64,000 nucleotides of DNA from Patescibacteria group bacterium (GCA_041661625.1 JBAZUB010000003.1:69004-133003), one strand, 5' to 3'. Shown: positions 3,125-58,132, counted from the stretch's first letter. Made by a program: numbers and translations. Notes: generated from the letters alone by a model not told the origin.

Positions 3125-4294
3125 CTAGCTTCTCTTGAAGAGCAGGACATGCTCATGGGTTATTCTACTATTCCGAACATTGAACGAGCGCTTCGTCGCC
3201 TGAAGCGTACGAATCCATCTCTCTTCCAGAGGCATACCATGATTTCGAAACAGTTTGATGAATGTGTCACCCACAGGCACAGCGCGCTTATTGACGATCG
3301 CATCTCCGACAACAAACAAACACCTGCCACCCGGACGCAACACCCTGGACCACTCGCGCAGGCAATTCTCCATATCGGTAAAGTACTTGTCTGCGGTGGC
3401 CTTCGGCCGGGTGAACTCGTCGTGGCTTCCAATCTCGAGGTCACGAGCAAATGCGACGTCCCCGTCTAACCAGTGAATGCGTTGGCGGTGATACTTGTGA
3501 TAGTCATAGGCGTTCAGGTAAGGAGGCGATGTGACGATCAGAGTCACGCTCCGATCCCGAATGAATGGCACTTTGCGGGCATCAGCCAGCTTGAGTGTCA
3601 CTTTGGCGCGCGGCCCTCGTGGAGCGTCATCCAACCTTCTTACCGTGTCCAGCAGTCGAAGACGGAACAGCGAACCGACGTCCGCAACGGTCACGTCTCG
3701 TGGCACTCGCGCATATCTTGTGTCGCTATCCTGAAAGGAGACGCGCACAATAATGGACGAAAAGATGGACTGAAGCAAAACCTTCTCGGGTTGTTTCTCG
3801 CTAAGTATCAGTCCTTTGAGAGCCGCGAGCCGGTCCATGATGTCCTTGGTGAACCAATAGGGAACATGGTCGTTGCTCGGTATCAACTCCGGCCGGGCAA
3901 CCGCTGCAGTCAGCCAGTTCTCTACGGACTCTGCAAAGATCCGTAAACGGCTGATACTGCGCTTTGTATAGTGAAGAGTCTTGGCTCGGCTCACCAGTAT
4001 AGCAATGTCGTTATTGTCTGTCCCGATTGACGGCCGTCCAAGAATGCTGGCCTCGAGCAAGGTAGTACCGCACCCGCAAAACGGGTCGTATACCAGTTCT
4101 CCGGGCTTGCTCCACTGCTCGATCGCCTTTCGCGGTATCTGCGGAATAAACCGGGCAGGATAGGGATGCAGAGAATGAAGGTGCTCCTGCGTGTCGACAC
4201 CATGGAAATTCCAGCCCTTCCCGTTTGTGACGAGAGCGCCTTCATCTGCTGTTGTGTATATTGCTCGGCGTTCCATGGTTATGCTTTGAAACAC
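3125..4294 (-). CDS. SAM-dependent DNA amino-methyltransferase (N6A/N4C type)
   Basis: Motif-X-like HPYPARFIPQIPRKAI, motif I DPFCGCGTT, motif IV IVTSPPY. Overlaps the upstream MTase gene by 16 nt. Confidence 0.7.
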   Translation of the reverse strand: MFQSITMERRAIYTTADEGALVTNGKGWNFHGVDTQEHLHSLHPYPARFIPQIPRKAIEQWSKPGELVYDPFCGCGTTLLEASILGRPSIGTDNNDIAILVSRAKTLHYTKRSISRLRIFAESVENWLTAAVARPELIPSNDHVPYWFTKDIMDRLAALKGLILSEKQPEKVLLQSIFSSIIVRVSFQDSDTRYARVPRDVTVADVGSLFRLRLLDTVRRLDDAPRGPRAKVTLKLADARKVPFIRDRSVTLIVTSPPYLNAYDYHKYHRQRIHWLDGDVAFARDLEIGSHDEFTRPKATADKYFTDMENCLREWSRVLRPGGRCLFVVGDAIVNKRAVPVGDTFIKLFRNHGMPLEERWIRTLQATKRSFNVRNSRITHEHVLLFKRS

Positions 4295-5898
4295 AAGATT
4301 GTCTCGGCCGACCCCCGATTCTCCCGAAAGATATCACGCGACACTAGCAGCTCCATCGGGATCATTTCAAGGCCCTTCCAGCCAACCTGTTGTCCAATCG
4401 CAAACAGGAATCGGTCGGTAGGAATCTCCACCTTCTCACCGTTTACGGTGCTGCTGTTGTTCCCGACTACATAATACGCGTAGCTCCCCGGGGCCATGAG
4501 TGATCGCGCTGAGCGCATGGCATCGCTCATGGCGAGGAAGTATCGAGCCAGCAACGAGGGCAGGTTACGTCTACGAAAGCCGACATCCGGACCGTGGTTG
4601 TGCGACGCAATTCGCTCGATCAGTGAGATGGTTTCGCGAGGCAGTTCCTTCTTTCGGGTCTCGAACTGGCTCCATCCCTGGAGTCGTTCCTTGTCAGTGA
4701 TCTCTCGCGTGCCTACCATCAAGCTCTCAACATCCCCATGGCGTTGTCGCGAGAGGAGGCCAAGGACGACAAGGCTAAGCCTATCCGTGTCAATGTAAGG
4801 CAAGGCTGTCGCGTATGGAGGCGACGTCACCAGCAAATCGACCTTCCCCACATACTCGGGGAAAAGCTCATCAAGTTGCACCGCGTTGCCCTGCACGACT
4901 TTGAGGGTTCGCTTTCGGGACCGTGGAAGTACACAGAGGTACGGATAGATCCGGTCGGTCTGCTCCTCCACCTGGGTCCGAAACTTCTCCAGTGCTGCTC
5001 CCTGAAGATACGGTCTGACGTCCTTACGAACGCGGAGGTCCACCTCCTTTTGCCAGGATACTGAGCGCACGATCTCGCTCAGGCAGACTCGTAGGAAATC
5101 TCGGTAGAGAGCGGAATCGACTCTTTCTATGCTTCGTAAAATAGCCGCGATGTCCTTGAGGGCGGGTTCTGCAAACCACCGGCGCAGGTACGCAAGATCG
5201 TGCCCTTGCCAGAAGTGGTCGGGTTCGGAGTCCCGGAACTTCAGTTTGCGAAGGTATGCGTCGATGGTCTCGGCGAACACCTCGGGGCGTTCGCGGACAA
5301 TGCCAGCTTTCACCTTGGCAATAAGGACCGAGAGCGGGTTCAGGTCCGCTGCCAAAGCGGCGCGGCCGGCTGCTACTGTCTCGCATGGTGTTGTGCCGCT
5401 GCCGCACATCGGATCGAGGACTAGGCCGTCATCCGGCACCCCGGATATGTTCATCAGACTGCGAACGAGTTGGGGGAAGAACTTCCCCCGATATTCATGC
5501 AGGTCGTGAGGCCCGTAGCGAAGCCTTCGTGCCCGGTGAAGTTCGGTCTTCTCCGTGGTGCTCTCAGATCCGTTCTGAGTGAACTCAAGTGCGTTCTGCA
5601 CCGTAGGTTCAAGAACGGTTGTGCCGACCCGTTGCCAGTAGGTCAGGCGTTCCCGGAAGTACTGAACAGGTCGTCCTGAACGAACAAGGTGAAGGCCATA
5701 CTTCTCGGCAACCGGGCCGTCTCCCTGGAGAAGGGCTTGCAGTTCGCGAGTGGCCAGCTCGCGCTCGAATGGTTGGAGATAGGGTTTCATCTCAAACTTC
5801 AGTGAGTCCTTGTCGTTGGCGAGCAGCAACGGAGGGAAAATCGAAAATCTCCGCTGAATCATGTTCGCGATATCTATTGGCATCATGCGTTTTGGCAT
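4279..5898 (-). CDS. SAM-dependent DNA amino-methyltransferase (N6A/N4C type), second copy
   Basis: LHEYRGKFFPQLVRSL then motif I LDPMCGSGTT, motif IV LLVTSPPY. 539 aa. Overlaps both neighbouring genes by 16 nt. Confidence 0.7.
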   Translation of the reverse strand: MPKRMMPIDIANMIQRRFSIFPPLLLANDKDSLKFEMKPYLQPFERELATRELQALLQGDGPVAEKYGLHLVRSGRPVQYFRERLTYWQRVGTTVLEPTVQNALEFTQNGSESTTEKTELHRARRLRYGPHDLHEYRGKFFPQLVRSLMNISGVPDDGLVLDPMCGSGTTPCETVAAGRAALAADLNPLSVLIAKVKAGIVRERPEVFAETIDAYLRKLKFRDSEPDHFWQGHDLAYLRRWFAEPALKDIAAILRSIERVDSALYRDFLRVCLSEIVRSVSWQKEVDLRVRKDVRPYLQGAALEKFRTQVEEQTDRIYPYLCVLPRSRKRTLKVVQGNAVQLDELFPEYVGKVDLLVTSPPYATALPYIDTDRLSLVVLGLLSRQRHGDVESLMVGTREITDKERLQGWSQFETRKKELPRETISLIERIASHNHGPDVGFRRRNLPSLLARYFLAMSDAMRSARSLMAPGSYAYYVVGNNSSTVNGEKVEIPTDRFLFAIGQQVGWKGLEMIPMELLVSRDIFRENRGSAETILCFKA

Positions 5899-15245: not shown

Positions 15246-16760
15246 TTGCCTTCCTATATCCTCTATGCGCGCAAGTCCTCCGAATCGGAGGATCGTCAAG
15301 TTCTCTCCATCGATTCGCAAGTCCGCGAATTGGAGGCCTTCGCGCAATCCCAGAACTTCACGGTTGCCTCGGTCCTGGCTGAGTCCCGCTCGGCCAAGGC
15401 CCCCGGCCGGCCGATCTTCGCGAAGATGCTCCGATCCGTCAGCCAGGGAAAGGCCGACGGCATCCTCTGCTGGAAGCTCGACCGCCTCGCCAGAAACCCG
15501 GTCGACGGGGCCGCCCTCATCTGGGCGGTCGACGAAGGCAAGCTCCGGGAGATTGTCACCCGGGACCGGGCCTTCCAGAACACCGGGAATGACAAGTTCT
15601 GGATGCAGCTCGAGTTCGGCATGGCCAAGAAGTACGTGGACGATCTCTCCGACAATGTCAAACGCGGCAACCGAGCCAAACTGGAGCAGGGCTGGCTCCC
15701 GGGGCTGCCCCCAATCGGGTATCTGAACGACGCGGTGACGCGGAAGATCGTTCGCGATCCGGACCGGTTCGACATTCTGCGGAAGATCTGGGACGCCGTG
15801 CTGGCCGGTGAGTCTCCCCTCGAAGTGCTTTCGACCGCCACCGACGAGTGGGGGTTACGCACGCGAAAACACCGGCGCACGGGGGGTAAGCCGCTCGGCC
15901 GGAGCAACTTCTATGTCATGCTCTCCAACCCATTCTACTATGGGCTGCTTGTTCGCAACGGTGAGTCCTATCCTGGATCGCACCCTCCCATGATCTCGCA
16001 GGACGAGTTCGACCGCGTCCAGGAGCTACTCGGCCGTCCGAATCGGGCACCGCAACGGCGGCACGAATTCGCCTTCACGGGACTGATCCGCTGCGAGGAG
16101 TGCGGCGCTTCGATCACCGCCGCGGAGACGGTGAATCGGTACGGCTACCACTACGCCTACTACCACTGCACGAAACGGAAGGCCGGCACTTCCTGCAGAC
16201 AGATGCCGATCCGCGAGGAAAAGCTGGAAACACAGATCCGCGAGGTATTGAGCCAGGTGGCCATTGACGACGACTATCGCGACTGGGCTTTGGAGAACCT
16301 TCGGATTGTCCACGAACGGGAAAGCAAGAGCCGGCAAACGGTGGACCGTTCCCTGGACGAGACTCACCGGGACGTTCAGAAGCAGATCGACGCGCTCCTC
16401 CAGGTCCGCCTCCGTGGATTGGTCACCGACGAGGAATATGCCGCCAAGAAGCACTCTCTTGTTTCCGAGAGCCTTCGATTGAAGGAACGCCTCGTCGACA
16501 CCGATGGCCGAGCCACCCGTGGGTTGAAACTTTTCGAGCAAGCGATATTGTTCGCACACCTAGCCCCGAAACGCTTCGCGGAGGGAACAACCGCGGAGAA
16601 GCGCGAGATTCTCATGGCCCTCGGTTCCAACCTCTTGCTCAAGGACAGAACTCTGCGAATCCAACTGCAAAAACCCTTCCACCTGATCGGGGAAGGGCGG
16701 CACAGTATTTCCTGGTACCGGAGGAGGGACTTGAACCCTCAATCCCTTACGGGAACGTGA
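15246..16760 (+). CDS. Large serine recombinase (integrase)
   Basis: Resolvase-domain catalytic region YARKSSESEDRQVLSIDSQ, recombinase domain, zinc ribbon CEECGASI...YHCTKRK, C-terminal coiled-coil region. TTG start. The last about 16 codons are encoded by the tRNA-Leu sequence. Confidence 0.85.
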   Translation: MPSYILYARKSSESEDRQVLSIDSQVRELEAFAQSQNFTVASVLAESRSAKAPGRPIFAKMLRSVSQGKADGILCWKLDRLARNPVDGAALIWAVDEGKLREIVTRDRAFQNTGNDKFWMQLEFGMAKKYVDDLSDNVKRGNRAKLEQGWLPGLPPIGYLNDAVTRKIVRDPDRFDILRKIWDAVLAGESPLEVLSTATDEWGLRTRKHRRTGGKPLGRSNFYVMLSNPFYYGLLVRNGESYPGSHPPMISQDEFDRVQELLGRPNRAPQRRHEFAFTGLIRCEECGASITAAETVNRYGYHYAYYHCTKRKAGTSCRQMPIREEKLETQIREVLSQVAIDDDYRDWALENLRIVHERESKSRQTVDRSLDETHRDVQKQIDALLQVRLRGLVTDEEYAAKKHSLVSESLRLKERLVDTDGRATRGLKLFEQAILFAHLAPKRFAEGTTAEKREILMALGSNLLLKDRTLRIQLQKPFHLIGEGRHSISWYRRRDLNPQSLTGT

Positions 16761-16799
16761 TTTTGAGTCACGCGCGTATGCCAATTCCGCCACTCCGGC
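16713..16799 (-). tRNA. tRNA-Leu (anticodon CAA), 87 nt including encoded CCA
   Basis: The reverse complement gives GCCGGAGTGGCGGAATTGGCATACGCGCGTGACTCAAAATCACG...GGGTTCAAGTCCCTCCTCCGGTACCA. It has a long variable arm and a T-loop TTCAAGT. G1-U72 is a wobble pair at the acceptor end facing the island. Confidence 0.85.
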
Positions 16800-50481: not shown

Positions 50482-50564
50482 TTTGACGCACGTTGCCATC
50501 CGTGGTATATTCAACACGTTAGTATTTTTTAAATTATCTTATATTCACAAGGGAGGTGAATAGA

Positions 50565-50837
50565 GTGGTCGAAGTCCGCCGCAAGGATGGAGAATCTGGA
50601 GAAAGTCTGCTGCGCCGTTTTACTCGAAAGGTTCAACAAAGTGGCACATTGATTCGGGCCAAGAAAAGACGTTTTTACGAACCGCCCAAGAACAAACGGG
50701 CCGTGCGCGAAGATGCAATTCGCCGGAGTGTTATTCGGGGAAAGCGCGAATATCTCAAGAAAATAGGCAAATTGGACGATTGGATGGAACGTAAAGGTTA
50801 TCGAACATACAAGGGTTCAAAAAGATCAGGTTCTTAA
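50565..50837 (+). CDS. rpsU: 30S ribosomal protein S21
   Basis: VEVRRKDGES...LLRRFTRKVQQSGTL...KRRFYEPP. GTG start at 50565, 7 nt after AGGGAGG. Confidence 0.8.
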   Translation: MVEVRRKDGESGESLLRRFTRKVQQSGTLIRAKKRRFYEPPKNKRAVREDAIRRSVIRGKREYLKKIGKLDDWMERKGYRTYKGSKRSGS

Positions 50838-50850
50838 AACATAGCTCGTT

Positions 50851-51306
50851 TTGATCCGAGAAAAAATTGAACAAAATTTGAAGTTAGCCCAGAAAAGCCA
50901 GGATGAGGCGACAGTTTCGACGCTGCGCCTGGTTTTGGCATCTATGAAGAATTTTCAGATCGAACAGCGGGGTCGCGATTTGACTGATGATGACATGATT
51001 ATGCTGTTGAAAAGGGAAGCCAAGAAGCGCACTGAAGCGATCGAGGCCTACACCAAAGGCGGCCGGGAAGAATTGCGCGCCAAAGAGGCTCACGAACTGC
51101 AAATTATTAGGGAATATTTACCGCCGGAAATGTCTGAAGAAGAGGTAAGTAAGGTCATCCAGGCGGTTATCGGTGATCTGGGTGTTACTGATCCCAGCCA
51201 ATTTGGCCGGGTAATGTCTGAGTCTATGAAACGCTTGGGTAACCAAGCTTCGGGCCAAATTGTTTCAGCGGTTGTCAAAAAGGCTCTCACTAAACCAAAA
51301 GACTAA
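50851..51306 (+). CDS. yqeY: GatB/YqeY domain protein
   Basis: Conserved rpsU-yqeY arrangement and typical YqeY helical sequence. TTG start. Confidence 0.7.
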   Translation: MIREKIEQNLKLAQKSQDEATVSTLRLVLASMKNFQIEQRGRDLTDDDMIMLLKREAKKRTEAIEAYTKGGREELRAKEAHELQIIREYLPPEMSEEEVSKVIQAVIGDLGVTDPSQFGRVMSESMKRLGNQASGQIVSAVVKKALTKPKD

Positions 51307-51322: not shown

Positions 51323-54300
51323 ATGGGAGGACCAATACCAAAAACTAACCAAAAATACTGGAGAGGCTTTGTGCTGGGAGCCGGCATCTGGTGTCTGCTG
51401 CTTTTGGCCGTTATTCTAGTCTGGCCGTACCGATTTGCCTGGGCGGCGACTTTTGACAGTAATACCGGTAGTGCTCTGGGCTTAGGTACGGTGCCGTTGG
51501 ACCAGGTAGTACGGAACATTATCCGCTGGGCGCTGGGATTTTTGGGTCTGATCGCGGTGATTATGGTCATTTATGGCGGCTTTTTGTGGATGACCGCGGC
51601 GGGCAATGAGCAGCGGATCGAAAAGGCCAAGAAGATTATCATGGGCGCGATCATTGGCCTGGTTATAATATTGTTGTCTTTCGCCATAGTGCAGTTTGTA
51701 TTTTTCGGTGTGACAAATTCTACCGGAAACGGAAATGACAATACTAACGGCGGCCCACCGCCGGATGGTGGTGATAGCGCTCAGTTCTATGTCCGGCTCG
51801 TCTCACCGCACGAGGATGAAGACAATGTTTCATTATGCCGCTTCGTTCAGGGCGTATTTAACCGCCAGATCAACCAATCGACTGGCGCACTGACACTGAC
51901 CCAGGTGGACAATGGCCAAGCAGTCGCGGGCGCCATCACCTACCAGGATGGCAATAAGATAAAACTGGACCCGAGCGCCGATCTGGCTCCGCAAAAACAA
52001 TACCGCGCTTTAATACCCGACACAGTCGAGGATTCATCCGGCAATCAGCTGGATCAGCAGAAAGAGTGGTATTTTACGACCGGTTCCGAGTCGGATAATG
52101 AGCCGCCGCGGGTATTTGATACCTGGCCCGATACGGGCGCGACGGATATCTGCCTGTCCACGCCGATTGTGGTCGAGTTTAATGAACCGATGGATCTGTC
52201 TACTCTGATTGTGGCCAATGTCACGGTCGCCGGTCCCGGCAACCCGCAGGTCAGGTCGGTGGATATTCCCAACGATCGCACAATGGCGATCACATTGAAT
52301 TCGCCCTTGGAACCCAACCAGGATTACACGGTGACTTTAAACGGCGCGCCGGGGCATATTGCCGATGCCTGCGGTAATCCACTGGACGGTAATGGCGACG
52401 GTACGGGCGGTGATAATTATGACTGGTCATTTACGACCGGCATTGGCGCTGATTGCGCCCCCAAGATCAACTCGATCAGCGGATCGGGCTACTATGAGAC
52501 CGACGTGACGATCGAGGGCACGAATTTTACCAGCATTCCCACCACGACGGTGTTTAATAACGACGCTACGGCTTTTAATAACTGTTTCAATGCCAGCTAT
52601 ATTCCTAACGCGGTTTGTGTCAAAGAGTGGACTAATACGCGTATTAAAGTCACCCTACCGGCCAGCGGCGGCGCCAGCAACGGCGCCATCGACGGTCTGG
52701 TTAAGGTTAGGGTAGGTGCGCTGGAAAGCAACGGCAAGGATTTTGACGTCAAGGCGCCGCACGTCAGCCAGGTCAACCCGGCCAGCGGCGGACCGGGGCA
52801 ATTCGTCACCATCACGGGAACAAATTTCGGCAGCAGCGCCGGCCGGGTGCTATTCCGCAAGACCGGTGATCCGGATATCGAGGGTGATCGGCCATCCTGC
52901 TCGTCTTGGTGGCAAAATGATCAGATTATTGTCAAAGTACCGGAAGGTTTCAGCCTCAATGACGTTACACAAATACAGATTGATACTTCGGGCAACCGCC
53001 GTTCCAATCTGGAAGATTTTCAAATAACGAACCAAGTTGGGCCGGGATTATGTTCGATCACCCCGGCTTGCGGTGGTGCGGATACTGATGTCACATTAAT
53101 CGGCGAGGCATTAGGCGGCGCCGGCCAGCTGAAATTCGACGGTACAACGGCTGACACCACGGTCTGGACCGAAGGCCAGATCAAGGGCAAGGTACCGGAT
53201 ATCGCCGACAGCGTAAATCCTTATTCGGTCACCGCGACTGTCGGCGGACTGGTCAGCAATGGGCTGCCATTCCACAAACCCTGTGGAACCGGCGATGATG
53301 GCGAACACCGCGCCTGCGCTGGCGCTACTTGTATCACCGCTTCCGGTGAGGCGCCCGATGAATGCGCTAACGACTCGCAATGTACCGGCACAAACACTCA
53401 CTCAGAATGCGCCGGCGCGATGTGCAACGTAGTTGATGGCGCGGGCGCCAATCAATGCGACACACCCGATGACTGTGATGGCGAACACCGGGCTTGTGCC
53501 GGTACCAGCTGTATAACCGTTTCGGGCGAAGCGGCCGACGAATGTACCGACGATTCGCAATGTACAGACGCGAATACCCACTCGGAATGCGCCGGCGCGA
53601 TGTGCAACGTAGTTGATGGCGCGGGCGCCAATCAATGCGACACACCCGATGACTGTGATGGCGAACACCGGGCTTGTGCCGGCACAACCTGTATTACCGC
53701 CTCAGGCGAAGCCCCAGACGAGTGTTCCAATGATTCCCAGTGCACCGACGCGAATACCCACTCGGAATGCGCCGGCGCGATGTGCAACGTAGTTGATGGC
53801 GCGGGCGCCAATCAGTGTGCCGTGCCGGATGACTGTGCCGGATCGGGTACGGACTGCGACTCCGACCCTGCTACGCCGGCTTGCCAGCCAGGCGCCTGCC
53901 CTGTGGGAGAAACTTGCCGCGATACAGATTGCCGTTGTTGGGTATTGCCCTCCTATGCCTGCAGTACTACCCAGTGGAGCTGCACGCCCAATCCGGCGGG
54001 TTGCGCTGCTACGCAAGGATGTTTGAATGATTGTTCTTGCGCCGACAGGCCAACGTTGACGAGCAGCATTCCTGCGAATCTCAGTGTCGACATATGTCGC
54101 AATGTTCAGTTCAGCTGGACTTTTTCGGAGACAATGAGCGGTTCTTCGGCTGACAATGATGCTATTCAGCTAACGATCGATGGCGGAGCCGCGGCAGGTG
54201 CTGCATGCAGCGTGGACAAAGATTGCGCATCGGATAATTGCAGCAGCAATCTCTGTGTCGGCAGCGTAGTCAGGGGTAGCTACTCCCAGCCATCCGATAA

Positions 54301-55837
54301 GCACAACATCTATGGAAACTTTGGCTTACTGGAGGCTGACACGGATTATCGAACCAAACTGCTGGGTTTGGCCAACGGTGTTTTGAGCACCGACGGTTTG
54401 GGTATGACCAGCGATGTCGAGTATACGTTCAAAACCTCCACCGCGATTTGTGATGTCAATCAAGTTAGGGTCGATCCGAGCAGTTGGCAATTTGTCCAGC
54501 GGGATGCCTCGAGGATGTTTACCGCTTCGGCTTACCATGGCGACCAGATGATCCTGTCCATTCCCGGTGTGTATGAATACAATTGGACTTGGTCAACGGA
54601 TGACGCCACGATTATAGTTGTCGGTCCGATCAATGTTGCGGCGACGGTGGGAACCATCCAAAACAAGAACGGCAGCACCCGAATCAACGCCAAGGCTTCC
54701 GTGACTACCCCCGGCAAGGAAAAGGAGGTTACCGGCCGGGCGGAAATACGGGTCAATATGTGCGAACACCCCTGGCCCGATCCGGGTGCCGGATTATTCG
54801 TGCCATTTACCGATGCTGACACGCACTTTTCTTTCTGGTACTGCACTGACGATGGATTGCCGATGATTACAAATGTTACCAATGGATCCAGCGGTGCTGA
54901 CCTAATCAAGGAATATTTCTTTAATGGTTTGCATGTCTGTGAGGGCGCGGCCAAAGCCTGCACGGTAGACGCGGATTGTGACGGCATGGCCTGCACGGTG
55001 CTGCCGGATGCGGTTGGCGTACGTGTAATGACGAACCCGAATAGTCAATCACCCAAACTTTGGTATGAAAAAAGATTACCCAATGAGCCGATCCCCAGCG
55101 GCGCCGAGCGGACCATTGATGGTTTTCAGTCCATTCGAGTCGGTCGGACTAGCTATGTCGATGCGGCTAATTCCTACTTTGATGGTGCCTGGCATACTTA
55201 TACCAATATTTATCTACTGTCCTTCAGTGAGAATTCGAAATCTGTAACCCAGGAGGTAGCCAACGCATTGATCGGGAACTGGAAATTTGTCACCAATGCG
55301 GGTGTTGATTTTGGCGATTTTGCCAAACCCTGGCTGATACGTGACACCAAGCGGTTGGCCGACTTAGCCGATATTGAGCACTATCTGGACGATTATCGGG
55401 CTACCAGTAGCACCTATCCCAATCTGCAAGCCGGCAGCTATCTAACACGACGGTCCACTAGCGCCTGGCCATCATGGCAAGCTTCCTTGGGTAACGCATT
55501 GGGCAAGGGATTGCCCACTGACCCGTTGAACTTGTTTTTGTACGGCTCCGGCCCGGGTACGTGTGAGGTGCCGCCGTATGATCACGATACCTGTTGGTGG
55601 GGCAATAAGACTCTGTACCCGACTGACGGTGGCCGGTTCACCTGCCAGGCCAACTCGCATGTTTATATGTACAATTTCGTTCCCGATCCGGCCGACCCCG
55701 CGCTCGATAAGTCCTATTTGTACACGATGCTAGAATATCCGCAATGGGGTGCGCTGGCACCAGCTAATCCATGTGCCGGTTTAGCCGATGGCTCTAGTTG
55801 CGCTTGCTTTAATTACACCAGAGAAGTCACACCATAA
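51323..55837 (+). CDS. Giant (1504 aa) cell-surface protein: signal peptide, VirB2/TrbC-pilin-like two-helix N-terminal module, Ig-like/beta-rich region, three Cys-rich 60-aa tandem repeats
   Basis: AWA|A signal peptidase site. IYGGFLWMTAAGNEQRIEKAKKIIMGAIIGLVIILLSFAIVQFVF. Repeats DGEHRACAG.CIT.SGEA.DEC..DSQCT..NTHSECAGAMCNVVDGAGANQC..PDDC. Confidence 0.7.
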   Translation: MGGPIPKTNQKYWRGFVLGAGIWCLLLLAVILVWPYRFAWAATFDSNTGSALGLGTVPLDQVVRNIIRWALGFLGLIAVIMVIYGGFLWMTAAGNEQRIEKAKKIIMGAIIGLVIILLSFAIVQFVFFGVTNSTGNGNDNTNGGPPPDGGDSAQFYVRLVSPHEDEDNVSLCRFVQGVFNRQINQSTGALTLTQVDNGQAVAGAITYQDGNKIKLDPSADLAPQKQYRALIPDTVEDSSGNQLDQQKEWYFTTGSESDNEPPRVFDTWPDTGATDICLSTPIVVEFNEPMDLSTLIVANVTVAGPGNPQVRSVDIPNDRTMAITLNSPLEPNQDYTVTLNGAPGHIADACGNPLDGNGDGTGGDNYDWSFTTGIGADCAPKINSISGSGYYETDVTIEGTNFTSIPTTTVFNNDATAFNNCFNASYIPNAVCVKEWTNTRIKVTLPASGGASNGAIDGLVKVRVGALESNGKDFDVKAPHVSQVNPASGGPGQFVTITGTNFGSSAGRVLFRKTGDPDIEGDRPSCSSWWQNDQIIVKVPEGFSLNDVTQIQIDTSGNRRSNLEDFQITNQVGPGLCSITPACGGADTDVTLIGEALGGAGQLKFDGTTADTTVWTEGQIKGKVPDIADSVNPYSVTATVGGLVSNGLPFHKPCGTGDDGEHRACAGATCITASGEAPDECANDSQCTGTNTHSECAGAMCNVVDGAGANQCDTPDDCDGEHRACAGTSCITVSGEAADECTDDSQCTDANTHSECAGAMCNVVDGAGANQCDTPDDCDGEHRACAGTTCITASGEAPDECSNDSQCTDANTHSECAGAMCNVVDGAGANQCAVPDDCAGSGTDCDSDPATPACQPGACPVGETCRDTDCRCWVLPSYACSTTQWSCTPNPAGCAATQGCLNDCSCADRPTLTSSIPANLSVDICRNVQFSWTFSETMSGSSADNDAIQLTIDGGAAAGAACSVDKDCASDNCSSNLCVGSVVRGSYSQPSDKHNIYGNFGLLEADTDYRTKLLGLANGVLSTDGLGMTSDVEYTFKTSTAICDVNQVRVDPSSWQFVQRDASRMFTASAYHGDQMILSIPGVYEYNWTWSTDDATIIVVGPINVAATVGTIQNKNGSTRINAKASVTTPGKEKEVTGRAEIRVNMCEHPWPDPGAGLFVPFTDADTHFSFWYCTDDGLPMITNVTNGSSGADLIKEYFFNGLHVCEGAAKACTVDADCDGMACTVLPDAVGVRVMTNPNSQSPKLWYEKRLPNEPIPSGAERTIDGFQSIRVGRTSYVDAANSYFDGAWHTYTNIYLLSFSENSKSVTQEVANALIGNWKFVTNAGVDFGDFAKPWLIRDTKRLADLADIEHYLDDYRATSSTYPNLQAGSYLTRRSTSAWPSWQASLGNALGKGLPTDPLNLFLYGSGPGTCEVPPYDHDTCWWGNKTLYPTDGGRFTCQANSHVYMYNFVPDPADPALDKSYLYTMLEYPQWGALAPANPCAGLADGSSCACFNYTREVTP
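53297..53836 (+). repeat. 3 x 180-bp in-frame tandem DNA repeats inside the giant surface-protein gene; about 105 nt are identical between successive copies
   Basis: Period exactly 180 bp (53477 to 53657). Confidence 0.85.
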
Positions 55838-55839
55838 TT

Positions 55840-56472
55840 ATGCCAAACTCAACCAACCAGCCCAGTAGCGCGGAAGATATTTTTGCCCCAACCGATCCAG
55901 CCGGCACTCGAACTCCGTCCGTGCGTCCAACTCGGCGTCCGGCAGCACCTTATCATGACAGCCCCCTGCCACCGGTGCGCTCTGGTGGCTCTCGTAATCG
56001 CACCATATACCTAACAATAATCGTGATCGTGGTAGTATTGGTTGTCGGCAGCATAGCGGGGTTGGCTTGGTGGAAAAATCGTTCCCAGACCAGCGCTAAC
56101 GCCAGCAACCGAAACACCAATCAGCTAGTAAATCAGAATGCCAACTCTTCCATTGTTAATGTATCCAATCAGAACGCTAACGCAACAATCATCCCCAATG
56201 TCAATGAGTCGACCAATGCTCCTGCCGACAGTGATCGCGATGGATTGTCGGATACGGAAGAGGCCAGTCTTGGCACAAATCCGCAATTGAGCGATACTGA
56301 TGGTGATGGCTTATCGGATCTTCGCGAAGTCAGGATCTATCATTCAGATCCTCTGGTATCAGATTCCGATGGCAACGGCGTTTCGGATGGCGACGAAGTA
56401 TCAGCAGGTGATAATCCCACCGGCAGCGGCTCACTTTTTGATATTAGCAATAAGACCATAAATTCAAACTAA
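55840..56472 (+). CDS. Membrane-anchored surface protein with N-rich linker and thrombospondin-type-3-like DxDxDG calcium-binding repeats
   Basis: TM IYLTIIVIVVVLVVGSIAGLAWW. NASNRNTNQLVNQNAN linker. SDTDGDGLSD and SDSDGNGVSD repeats. Confidence 0.6.
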   Translation: MPNSTNQPSSAEDIFAPTDPAGTRTPSVRPTRRPAAPYHDSPLPPVRSGGSRNRTIYLTIIVIVVVLVVGSIAGLAWWKNRSQTSANASNRNTNQLVNQNANSSIVNVSNQNANATIIPNVNESTNAPADSDRDGLSDTEEASLGTNPQLSDTDGDGLSDLREVRIYHSDPLVSDSDGNGVSDGDEVSAGDNPTGSGSLFDISNKTINSN

Positions 56473-56726
56473 TGCCCGACCAGTCACCATATACGATGTC
56501 CAACAACCCAGCCCAGGGCATCAATAATACCGTCCCCGAAAATCCCACCGAGATTCGCGTGATGCCGGAACGGTTTTTAGCGCGCGGCGAGGCCAAAGGA
56601 TCGAGTCGCATGCGTTGGTGGATATATGTCGTTATTTTGATTGTTGTCGCCGGTTTGATCGGCGCGGGTATATTGTTGTTGAATCGCATAGTGGTGAATA
56701 ATAATACGGCACCGTATCGAATCTGA
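56472..56726 (+). CDS. Signal-anchor fragment (84 aa). Probably the N-terminal part of the following gene, separated from it by a frameshift in an AAT-rich tract near 56696-56704.
   Basis: TM anchor WWIYVVILIVVAGLIGAGILLL. The downstream frame is open from 56705 and encodes an N-rich linker. Confidence 0.45.
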   Translation: MPDQSPYTMSNNPAQGINNTVPENPTEIRVMPERFLARGEAKGSSRMRWWIYVVILIVVAGLIGAGILLLNRIVVNNNTAPYRI

Positions 56727-56806
56727 ATAACGCGGCTATTAACCAGAACAATAACGGCAACACGAACCTCAATACCAATAATTCTAATAACAATACCAAT
56801 TCTGTA

Positions 56807-58132
56807 GTGACGATAAAGGAATTGTCCGATACACTGCTGAACAAGGCCGACCTAGGAGAGGGTTATGAAGCCTACCAAGAACTGAAAATCACTACCGACA
56901 CTGGCAGTATTGCTGGCGTAGCTTTGTCGCGCGCCCAACGCATTTTTACGCTTGAGGATACGAAATCTAACAGCGTCAGTATTACCATAAAAGTTATGGA
57001 AGCCCCCTCAAAAACGGATGCAAACGCCGTATTTCAATCGGAAAATAGTGAACTGAAGCGTTCAGTTGGCAACCAGGAAGGCCGGTTTGTAAAAGCTTCC
57101 ACAGTCGGCGATCAATCACTGCTGTATGAACAAACCGACGGTAATAAAATCGAAACCATCTTTAGCTGGAAATATCTAATAGCCGATATCTCGATTGATG
57201 TATTCAAAGGCTCGGCACCATCGACTGAAGATGTGAAATCTTGGTTGGCGCGGCTACTTCAAAACTTTAAGGCCTATGATAGCACTAAGCCGGTTACCAA
57301 TACTAACGAAAACGATAACGCAAATATTAACGCGAACACCAACACTAATATAAATCAAAACGCGAACGGGAATATCAGCGCTCCACCACCGACCAGCAGC
57401 GCCGATCAGGATCAGGATAGCTTGACCGACACGGAGGAGCTGCTTTACAAAACCGATGTAGCTAAGCCGGATACCGACGGTGACAGTTATCTGGATGGTC
57501 CCGAAGTGGCCACTGGCTACAGTCCGATCGCAGCCTCAGGCGCGAAATTGGAGGCGTCTGGTTTGGTAAAAGTATTTTCCAGTCAAATCTACAATTATCG
57601 AATCCTGTATCCTTCGCCCTGGATAGTACAGAACGCTGTCGCCGATGGATCTAGCGTGGTCATGACTTCGGATACCGGTGAGTTTGTCAGCGTAACAATC
57701 GGTGAAAATTCGGAACGTTTGTCAGCTAAGCAGTGGTACATGAATCAAGCTCCTGGAATTGATGAGTCCAAAATTACTAGTGTCGTTGTCGGAGAGCTGA
57801 CGGGCGTGAAAAGTTCCGACGAATTGAATGTGTATTTAAGCAATGATACCGCCATATATATTATAACTTATAGTCTGGCCAACCACGAAACCGCTAATTT
57901 TCTGACTACCTTTGAAATGATGGTGCGCAGTTTCCGGGTAACCGGCTCACCACCGTCAATCAACGGTAATACCAACGCTAATACTAATACAAACACCAAC
58001 TCGAACGTTAATGCTGGCATCAACGTCAACAATAATGTCAATGTGAATACCAATACTCCAGATGGCACCTCTAGGGCGCCGAGCGGAACAGCCATACCGG
58101 CACCGATATTAAACACCGAACTTGGCATCTAA
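56807..58132 (+). CDS. Secreted/surface protein with N/T-rich linkers and a TSP3-like Ca-binding motif. The track start is GTG; the frame is open upstream to 56705.
   Basis: DQDQDSLTDTEELLYKTDVAKPDTDGDSYLDGPE. NTNENDNANINANTNTNINQNANGN. C-terminal NGNTNANTNTNTNSNVNAGINVNNNVNVNTN. Confidence 0.55.
   Translation: MTIKELSDTLLNKADLGEGYEAYQELKITTDTGSIAGVALSRAQRIFTLEDTKSNSVSITIKVMEAPSKTDANAVFQSENSELKRSVGNQEGRFVKASTVGDQSLLYEQTDGNKIETIFSWKYLIADISIDVFKGSAPSTEDVKSWLARLLQNFKAYDSTKPVTNTNENDNANINANTNTNINQNANGNISAPPPTSSADQDQDSLTDTEELLYKTDVAKPDTDGDSYLDGPEVATGYSPIAASGAKLEASGLVKVFSSQIYNYRILYPSPWIVQNAVADGSSVVMTSDTGEFVSVTIGENSERLSAKQWYMNQAPGIDESKITSVVVGELTGVKSSDELNVYLSNDTAIYIITYSLANHETANFLTTFEMMVRSFRVTGSPPSINGNTNANTNTNTNSNVNAGINVNNNVNVNTNTPDGTSRAPSGTAIPAPILNTELGI

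Follow-up and report, generated by a model that had tools for sequence, protein, structure and literature searches.

A stretch of 64,000 nucleotides (nt) of DNA from a Patescibacteria group bacterium (GCA_041661625.1 JBAZUB010000003.1:69004-133003; hereafter the window, in which positions are counted from the first letter) contains, on the plus strand at 51323-55837, an intact open reading frame (ORF) for a 1504-amino acid (aa) protein. This protein belongs to a family of giants that combine a pilin fold of the VirB2/TrbC type with a giant ectodomain, including a conserved domain that is absent from databases. We read it, with moderate confidence, as a Sec-exported, membrane-anchored giant surface protein, which would form an extended adhesin-like fibre characteristic of a Patescibacteria family. 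Patescibacteria account for a large share of bacterial diversity and apparently live attached to other cells, and the molecules that they use for contact are mostly unknown. The family of these giants is very large, conserved in position and probably highly expressed. If they mediate host contact or form a coat, they would provide a concrete target for Candidate Phyla Radiation (CPR) cell biology, conserved across lineages.

The ORF and its product had been given with the same limits and length in a preliminary description of the window, and both are borne out. The protein is labelled at NCBI as 'Ig-like domain-containing protein', Ig standing for immunoglobulin, and can be divided as follows (a slash marks the predicted cut in the leader).

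51323-51445, plus strand: signal peptide, aa 1-41, with a basic n-region, a hydrophobic core and the predicted cleavage site A39-W40-A41/A42, read from the sequence.
51497-51700, plus strand: VirB2/TrbC-type pilin-like hairpin, aa 59-126, with two hydrophobic helices around the loop TAAGNEQRIEKAKK (PF18895).
51710-51775, plus strand: linker rich in Gly, Asn, Pro and Asp, aa 130-151, read from the sequence.
51776-52438, plus strand: two Big_5 bacterial Ig-like domains, aa 152-253 and 258-372 (Pfam, E 3e-15 and 6e-21).
52460-53275, plus strand: three IPT/TIG Ig-like domains, aa 380-461, 479-567 and 578-651 (Pfam, E 7e-5, 7e-9 and 4e-6).
53297-53836, plus strand: three tandem Cys-rich units of 180 nt or 60 aa, equal to six half-modules of 30 aa (repeat analysis).
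53837-54037, plus strand: second Cys-rich module, single copy, aa 839-905 (alignment), kept in orthologues and identical in type to the module expanded in the sister strain P0005 (locus L084).
Within 54047-54709, plus strand: third Big_5-like domain with a Cys-loop insert, aa 909 to about 1012 (partial Big_5 match, E 3e-5).
Within 54047-54709, plus strand: beta-rich region, aa 1013-1129, a 'mid' region common to 36 homologues.
54710-55837, plus strand: conserved C-terminal domain, aa 1130-1504, and the stop codon; conserved across the family.

Pfam leaves two parts of this map empty, since the Cys region (about aa 659-905) has no match and aa 1013-1504 have none above threshold.

The N-terminus has the layout of a pilin precursor, namely a 41-aa leader ending in AWA/A, where signal peptidase would cut, and behind it a pair of hydrophobic helices (about aa 69-89 and 104-128) with a short charged loop between them. 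The sequence quoted for this region in the preliminary description is present, including the A-W-A/A site after residue 41, and orthologues have a site of the same AxA type at the same place (VQA/V, ALA/L and AQA/V). The Pfam family T4SS_pilin (PF18895), named after the type IV secretion system (T4SS), is matched by the whole protein at 42.1 bits (E 9e-11) and by the domain alone at 48.2 bits (E down to 1e-12), against a gathering cut-off of 26.6 bits. The same model matches all 31 aligned N-domains of related proteins, and 14 of these 31 are also matched by TrbC/VirB2 (PF04956), with a best E of 3.4e-8. The 1504-aa protein itself is absent from the PF04956 matches at E<=1, and its closest orthologue (P0002) has a weak precomputed match. 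NCBIfam NF045849, a pilin-like conjugal transfer protein family of integrative and conjugative elements (ICEs) of Mycoplasma, aligns with the hairpin over 62 of 80 model positions (E 1.4e-8, 34.3 bits), below its cut-off of 40 bits. By these profile matches the N-terminus is homologous to VirB2/TrbC-type pilins, as had been proposed from its appearance. The size departs from that of mature small pilins (about 7-12 kDa), the protein being 1504 aa long. A search of PDB sequences with the N-domain profile gave spurious matches only.

The N-domain is also the most conserved part of the family. Its mean column identity is 51%, with invariant Y, G, W, G, A, I and G and the motif YGGFLWMTAAGNxxxVxKAKK, and distant family members show about 25-35% identity over the whole protein. 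Because the loop TAAGNEQRIEKAKK is basic, the expected topology places it in the cytoplasm with both ends of the protein outside, so that about 1,370 residues would lie outside the cell.

At the other end lies a 375-aa C-terminal domain that no Pfam model covers. An AlphaFold2 model built from 19 sequences is of good quality, with a predicted local distance difference test (pLDDT) score of 88.2 and a predicted template modelling (pTM) score of 0.88. One part of the domain is a PsbP/Mog1-like subdomain, and the other is a subdomain in which a long helix accompanies a beta-sheet; the conserved motifs are RDxxRxxDL, STSxWPSWQ and LPxDPxN, and the chain terminates in ...CFNYTREVTP. Foldseek returned nothing at E<0.001 when the model was compared with the PDB. 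In sequence searches of the PDB with the C-domain and N-domain profiles, a cutinase (E 1.5) and the designer 'Pizza' propellers, which were hit through an 18-residue motif, were set aside as spurious. The modelled helix-plus-sheet subdomain weakly resembles the minor pseudopilins of the type II secretion system (T2SS), and we take this as a lead only. On this stretch the Pfam model T2SSG matches the fragment searched at E 0.01, below threshold, and it also matches in 4 of the 19 members, and all scores against GspI/XcpV/EpsI and T2SSG are under the family thresholds. T2SS pseudopilins and type IV pilins have a class III signal peptide and a hydrophobic alpha1-N segment at the N-terminus of the module, whereas the C-terminal subdomain has neither: it starts at about aa 1330, inside the protein, with no hydrophobic segment before the helix.

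The two terminal domains define a large family. Among the 120 best homologues, 85 have the pilin-like domain, always N-terminal, and in 33 of these 85 the last 375 aa are shared as well, in each case at the C-terminus or close to it. Searching 1.84 billion proteins with the C-domain profile retrieved 1,627 cluster representatives (at 50% identity), 1,338 of them at E<=1e-30. Of 110 long members among the newly retrieved top matches, 96 have the N-domain within their first 150 residues, and in 41 the C-domain is internal, with more than 300 aa after it. Scanning genomes for the N-domain motif gave at least 598 loci. Of the 80 retained, most have titles that name Patescibacteria or CPR candidate phyla, other titles make up about a third, and the closest of the 80 include several Kerfeldbacteria records. 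The family is, judging by these matches, widespread and restricted, or nearly so, to Patescibacteria. The window protein has its N-domain, its C-domain and its conserved locus position, and is a member. Several loci (L013, L016, L019, L020 and others) show the Patescibacteria-type arrangement in third-party annotation (TPA) metagenome genomes titled 'uncultured Gammaproteobacteria bacterium', titles that look like placeholder or wrong taxonomy. In the literature, no description was found of pilin-domain giants, of the conserved C-domain or of the fixed locus; VirB2-like pilins in Patescibacteria are already known, and the Pfam architecture of the giants is listed in databases.

This recurrence disposes of a trivial explanation, that a small pilin gene and a downstream adhesin gene have been joined by an assembly or frame error. 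A 1-nt indel relative to another assembly does occur in the next-but-one gene, but dozens of independent genomes and over 90 cluster representatives show the same fusion, and two assemblies encode the same 1504-aa product save for M/V at residue 1222. A fusion artefact is thus refuted for practical purposes, and we give it next to no credence.

Proteins with the N-domain fall into three size classes in the 80 loci. The small pilins measure 110-160 aa and are encoded in arrays of two to seven, a medium class spans 570-1,100 aa, and the giants run from 1,200 aa to beyond 3,400 aa. Mean N-domain identity is 48% for giants vs 37% for small pilins, and the nearest neighbours of giants are mostly other giants. 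In many Patescibacteria a pilin-N-domain protein of 570-1,100 aa is encoded between yqeY and the giant gene (L044 7982-19051, L051 8020-18982, L056 8006-19435); this medium partner is lacking in the window. In L027 (7601-10270), L052 (7474-10721) and L079 (5793-9268), four to six small pilin-like genes that share this N-domain motif form an array. Each array is preceded by a solute-binding-protein gene and followed by a gene for a DUF2079 membrane protein (L027, L052) or by a sugar-nucleotide gene of the GDP-mannose dehydratase type (L079), and no VirB4 gene was seen beside the arrays of these three loci. The small-pilin subtype annotated as 'T4SS pilin' may therefore not belong to a T4SS at all.

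The giant gene itself occupies a fixed place in the chromosome. The order rpsU, yqeY, giant gene, genes for two TSP3-type membrane proteins, ybeY, dgkA, ftsA and ftsZ recurs in most related giants, and rpsU and yqeY flank nearly all of them. In the window the surrounding features are the following.

50483-50511, plus strand: best sigma-70-like promoter match, upstream of rpsU (10 of 12 hexamer positions, TG before the -10 hexamer; a consensus match only).
50556-50837, plus strand: rpsU, ribosomal protein S21 (Pfam).
50851-51306, plus strand: yqeY (Pfam).
55840-56472, plus strand: 210-aa single-pass membrane protein with bacterial TSP3 repeats of the calcium-binding type (TSP3_bac, E 6.5e-16), syntenic in related loci.
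56472-58132, plus strand: second conserved downstream membrane protein, 553 aa in the near-identical genome L001, split in the window.

The gaps between rpsU, yqeY, the giant gene and the first downstream gene measure 13, 16 and 2 nt, and a consensus scan found no terminator-like site on the plus strand before the giant gene. On this sequence evidence, rpsU, yqeY, the giant gene and the downstream genes may form one operon under the rpsU promoter. The split of the 553-aa gene into 56472-56726 and 56807-58132 is due to one A that is absent, relative to L001, from an A-rich run near 56707, and this indel may be an assembly error or a real frameshift. The TSP3 partner at 55840-56472 weakly matches the TSP3-repeat regions of Myxococcus CglD and MtsD, far below cut-offs; this likeness probably reflects the shared calcium-binding repeat only.

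The GC content at third codon positions of the giant gene is 0.60, within the range of its neighbours, and its raised overall GC stems from codon position 2, i.e. from amino acid composition. Horizontal acquisition was considered from base composition and ruled out by the neighbour-like third positions, which mark the giant gene as native. Elsewhere in the window, two DNA methyltransferase-like genes lie at 3125-5898 and a large serine recombinase gene at 15246-16760 abuts a tRNA-Leu gene (16713-16799); together they could be signs of an integrated element or of a restriction-modification island.

The homology of the hairpin invites the reading that the giant is a modular T4SS pilin, drawn from the membrane by a T4SS into a pilus of small VirB2-like subunits, at the tip or the base, with its 1,370-aa ectodomain serving as pilus adhesin. 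The hairpin and loop are very highly conserved, related genomes encode small stand-alone pilins with the same motif, and Patescibacteria possess T4SSs with essential pilin arrays, no PrgB-like adhesin having been found in the phylum (PMC12102498, PMC10633639). The genomic context speaks differently. Among window ORFs of at least 500 aa, none matches T4SS families (VirB4, VirD4 etc.), one such ORF being without any Pfam match; the window has no second pilin-like ORF; and the immediate neighbours of the giant gene are housekeeping genes, here and in the syntenic loci. The giant gene was never beside T4SS genes in the loci examined and is, by context, not a T4SS gene. This, together with the position of the same-subtype small-pilin arrays between solute-binding-protein and DUF2079 genes rather than beside VirB4, weakens the proposal. 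Furthermore, the N-domains of the giants form a similarity group of their own, apart from the small pilins, and an appendage of 1,370 aa per subunit would be hard to pack in a pilus. We consider such a role rather unlikely.

The same locus lends itself to another interpretation, in which the giants form an envelope or S-layer-like coat: the hairpin would be an anchor, the C-domains would touch each other or the wall, the TSP3 partners would be involved and no host attachment would take place. A place in the core genome beside ybeY, dgkA, ftsA and ftsZ, in a likely operon with rpsU, would suit such a structural protein, as would the conservation of both ends while only the stalk varies, and the conserved partners with repeats of the calcium-binding type. 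Yet Pfam and NCBIfam searches of the protein found no LPXTG motif, no SLH domain and no known S-layer domain, and stalk length varies among lineages, from about 1,200 aa to upwards of 3,400 aa. A coat of this kind appears unlikely to us.

Within the stalk lies the Cys-rich repeat, which the preliminary description had also singled out. Tandem Repeats Finder reports a single array at 53296-53814 with period 180, 2.9 copies, 86% matches and no indels. A repeat finder gives three in-register copies of 180 nt at 53296-53835, the second and third being 84% and 79% identical to the first. The 60-aa units are in frame with the ORF and start at 53297. The 'three perfect 180-bp tandem repeats' first described are thus exact in period, frame and freedom from indels, but the units are only 79-86% identical. 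Likewise, the stretch of about 105 nt said to be fully identical between units comes down to longest exact runs, at an offset of 180 nt, of 98 nt (53405-53502) and 68 nt (53567-53634), and the six Cys counted per unit become eight in the DGEH...DDC register. Each unit consists of two related half-modules of 30 aa with the pattern C-x4-C-x10-C-x5-C. A degenerate 54-nt pattern derived from the unit has 3 matches in the real sequence and 0 in shuffled sequence; no metagenome contig matched this pattern, and a homologue search with two repeat units as query returned nothing.

Identity is unevenly distributed along the unit. Columns 1-15 and about 110-180 of the alignment are identical or nearly so, and columns 16-108 differ at many third-codon positions. 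Over codons 1-36 (the first 108 nt) the non-synonymous divergence (dN) is 0.05-0.10 and unit 1 is separated from units 2 and 3 by saturated synonymous change: same-amino-acid codons differ in 16 of 28 and 23 of 32 cases, against 16.6 and 19.1 expected from a random draw on codon usage. Between units 2 and 3 fewer such codons differ than in a random draw (10 of 31). Over codons 37-60 (the last 72 nt), units 1 and 2 are identical and unit 3 differs at seven nucleotide positions. Selection against recombination, which would raise synonymous divergence above random codon choice, was also considered; there is no such excess (P = 0.11-0.67). The saturated first part and the near-identical last part point to an old duplication with local homogenisation rather than to a recent expansion. 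Most simply, the unit would have been triplicated long ago and kept under purifying selection, and gene conversion would recently have acted on the second half-module alone. The repeat is thus a small but clear case in which concerted evolution affects one half of a unit only.

These data leave little room for the earlier idea of a very recent expansion and a contingency locus, with frequent size or antigenic variation within a population. The exact runs of 98 and 68 nt between successive units could support slippage or unequal exchange, and a sister lineage has an array of 96% identity with at least 4.4 copies, inside which the contig breaks. Against this stand the synonymous differences in the first 108 nt, which are as large as under random codon choice, and the restriction of identity to the final 72 nt plus the opening bases of the unit that follows; the units are far from the near-identity of a contingency locus, with identical tracts of just 68-98 nt. 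In addition, the unit is in frame, so that changes in copy number cannot switch the gene off, and the two near-identical assemblies, which differ by the M/V at residue 1222 and the downstream indel, both carry three units. We regard frequent variation of this kind as very unlikely.

What does stand is variation between relatives. Four orthologues have 6, 4, 2 and 2 half-modules (3, 2, 1 and 1 units). The two members of a sister pair agree at most aligned positions in their first 680 aa, yet differ wholly in the Cys segment: the sister strain (P0005, L084 5043-5570) has no 60-aa module and instead has at least 4.4 copies of another, 120-nt Cys module with 96% nucleotide identity, a lower bound since the L084 contig ends inside the array. 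The unit counts and the different array of the sister strain make the Cys segment a structural hot spot of the family on a between-strain time scale. The repeat nonetheless matters less than the giant family in which it lies.

Returning to the adhesin-like fibre that we favour, its assembly can be proposed as follows. Signal peptidase I would cut off the 41-aa leader, the VirB2/TrbC-type hairpin would insert in the membrane with its basic loop in the cytoplasm, and the remaining residues, about 1,370, would be displayed outside the cell. In this part, five to six Ig-like domains, the disulfide-rich spacer modules and another beta region would line up as an extended rod, with the conserved two-lobed C-terminal head at the far end as the most likely binding part. 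The 60-aa Cys units would act as length-setting spacers, in numbers that differ between lineages. The gene itself is a vertically inherited core gene, probably co-transcribed with rpsU, yqeY and the two TSP3-type membrane protein genes that lie shortly upstream of ftsA and ftsZ. Analogy with Ig-repeat adhesins and the epibiotic life of cultivated Patescibacteria (PMC12857230) make adhesion its likeliest role, and the 'attachment organelle component' of the preliminary description is a plausible inference. In Patescibacteria co-cultures, T4SS-pilin-domain proteins are among the most highly expressed unknowns (PMC10936435).

Several points weigh against this picture. Adhesion is argued from analogy and lifestyle. 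The C-domain is conserved across lineages with presumably different hosts, a pattern more in keeping with a shared ligand or a lattice contact than with host-specific binding. The hairpin, too, is strongly conserved, which hints at a role beyond passive anchoring, and this segment might dock to other pilin-like subunits instead of merely holding the protein in the membrane. Finally, the AlphaFold2 model of the Cys region (aa 640-905, from a four-sequence alignment) is unusable at a pLDDT of 42.5, which makes the term rigid spacer a guess.

A bolder and more tentative proposal, which we think possible but doubtful, is that the giants are an unrecognised class of modular VirB2-type pilins, being either the missing adhesins of the essential T4SS or pilus of Patescibacteria or a main surface coat built on a hairpin derived from conjugative pilins. 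If this were true, the principal host-contact structure in much of the CPR would have a repurposed conjugation-pilin fold as its anchor or assembly module.

Among known systems, modular type IV pilins, e.g. PilB and PilC of Streptococcus sanguinis, resemble the giant in design, since an N-terminal filament or anchor module carries a bulky adhesive module. They differ in belonging to an unrelated filament system with another N-terminal fold (a single alpha1 helix behind a class III signal peptide) and in the far smaller size of the added modules. VirB2/TrbC pilins, including the stand-alone pilins and arrays of Patescibacteria (PMC12102498, PMC10633639), are alike in the leader, in the two helices around a short basic loop and, for the latter, in phylum. 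The pilin array of Southlakia is essential and lies inside a T4SS cluster (Wang et al., 2023, PMC10633639), and the one large survey of Patescibacteria T4SSs recorded many VirB2-like pilins and no PrgB-like adhesin (Quinonero-Coronel et al., 2025, PMC12102498). These pilins are precursors of about 110-160 aa that are often encoded near virB4, whereas the giant would expose about 1,370 further residues outside the cell and is encoded in a housekeeping locus. Giant Ig-repeat adhesins (SasG/Aap; the Mobiluncus adhesin, PMC10619420; SiiE, PMC6272769) likewise have an Ig-like rod, variable tandem modules and surface display, but they depend on an LPXTG/sortase anchor or on secretion by a type I secretion system, and none has a VirB2-type hairpin or the C-terminal domain of the giant. 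The Mbov_0395 family of Mycoplasma ICEs (NF045849) consists of small proteins encoded on ICEs, unlike the giant, and shares with it the likeness of the hairpin and a host that is also of a wall-less or monoderm lineage, with a T4SS of the mating-pair formation (MPF) FATA type.

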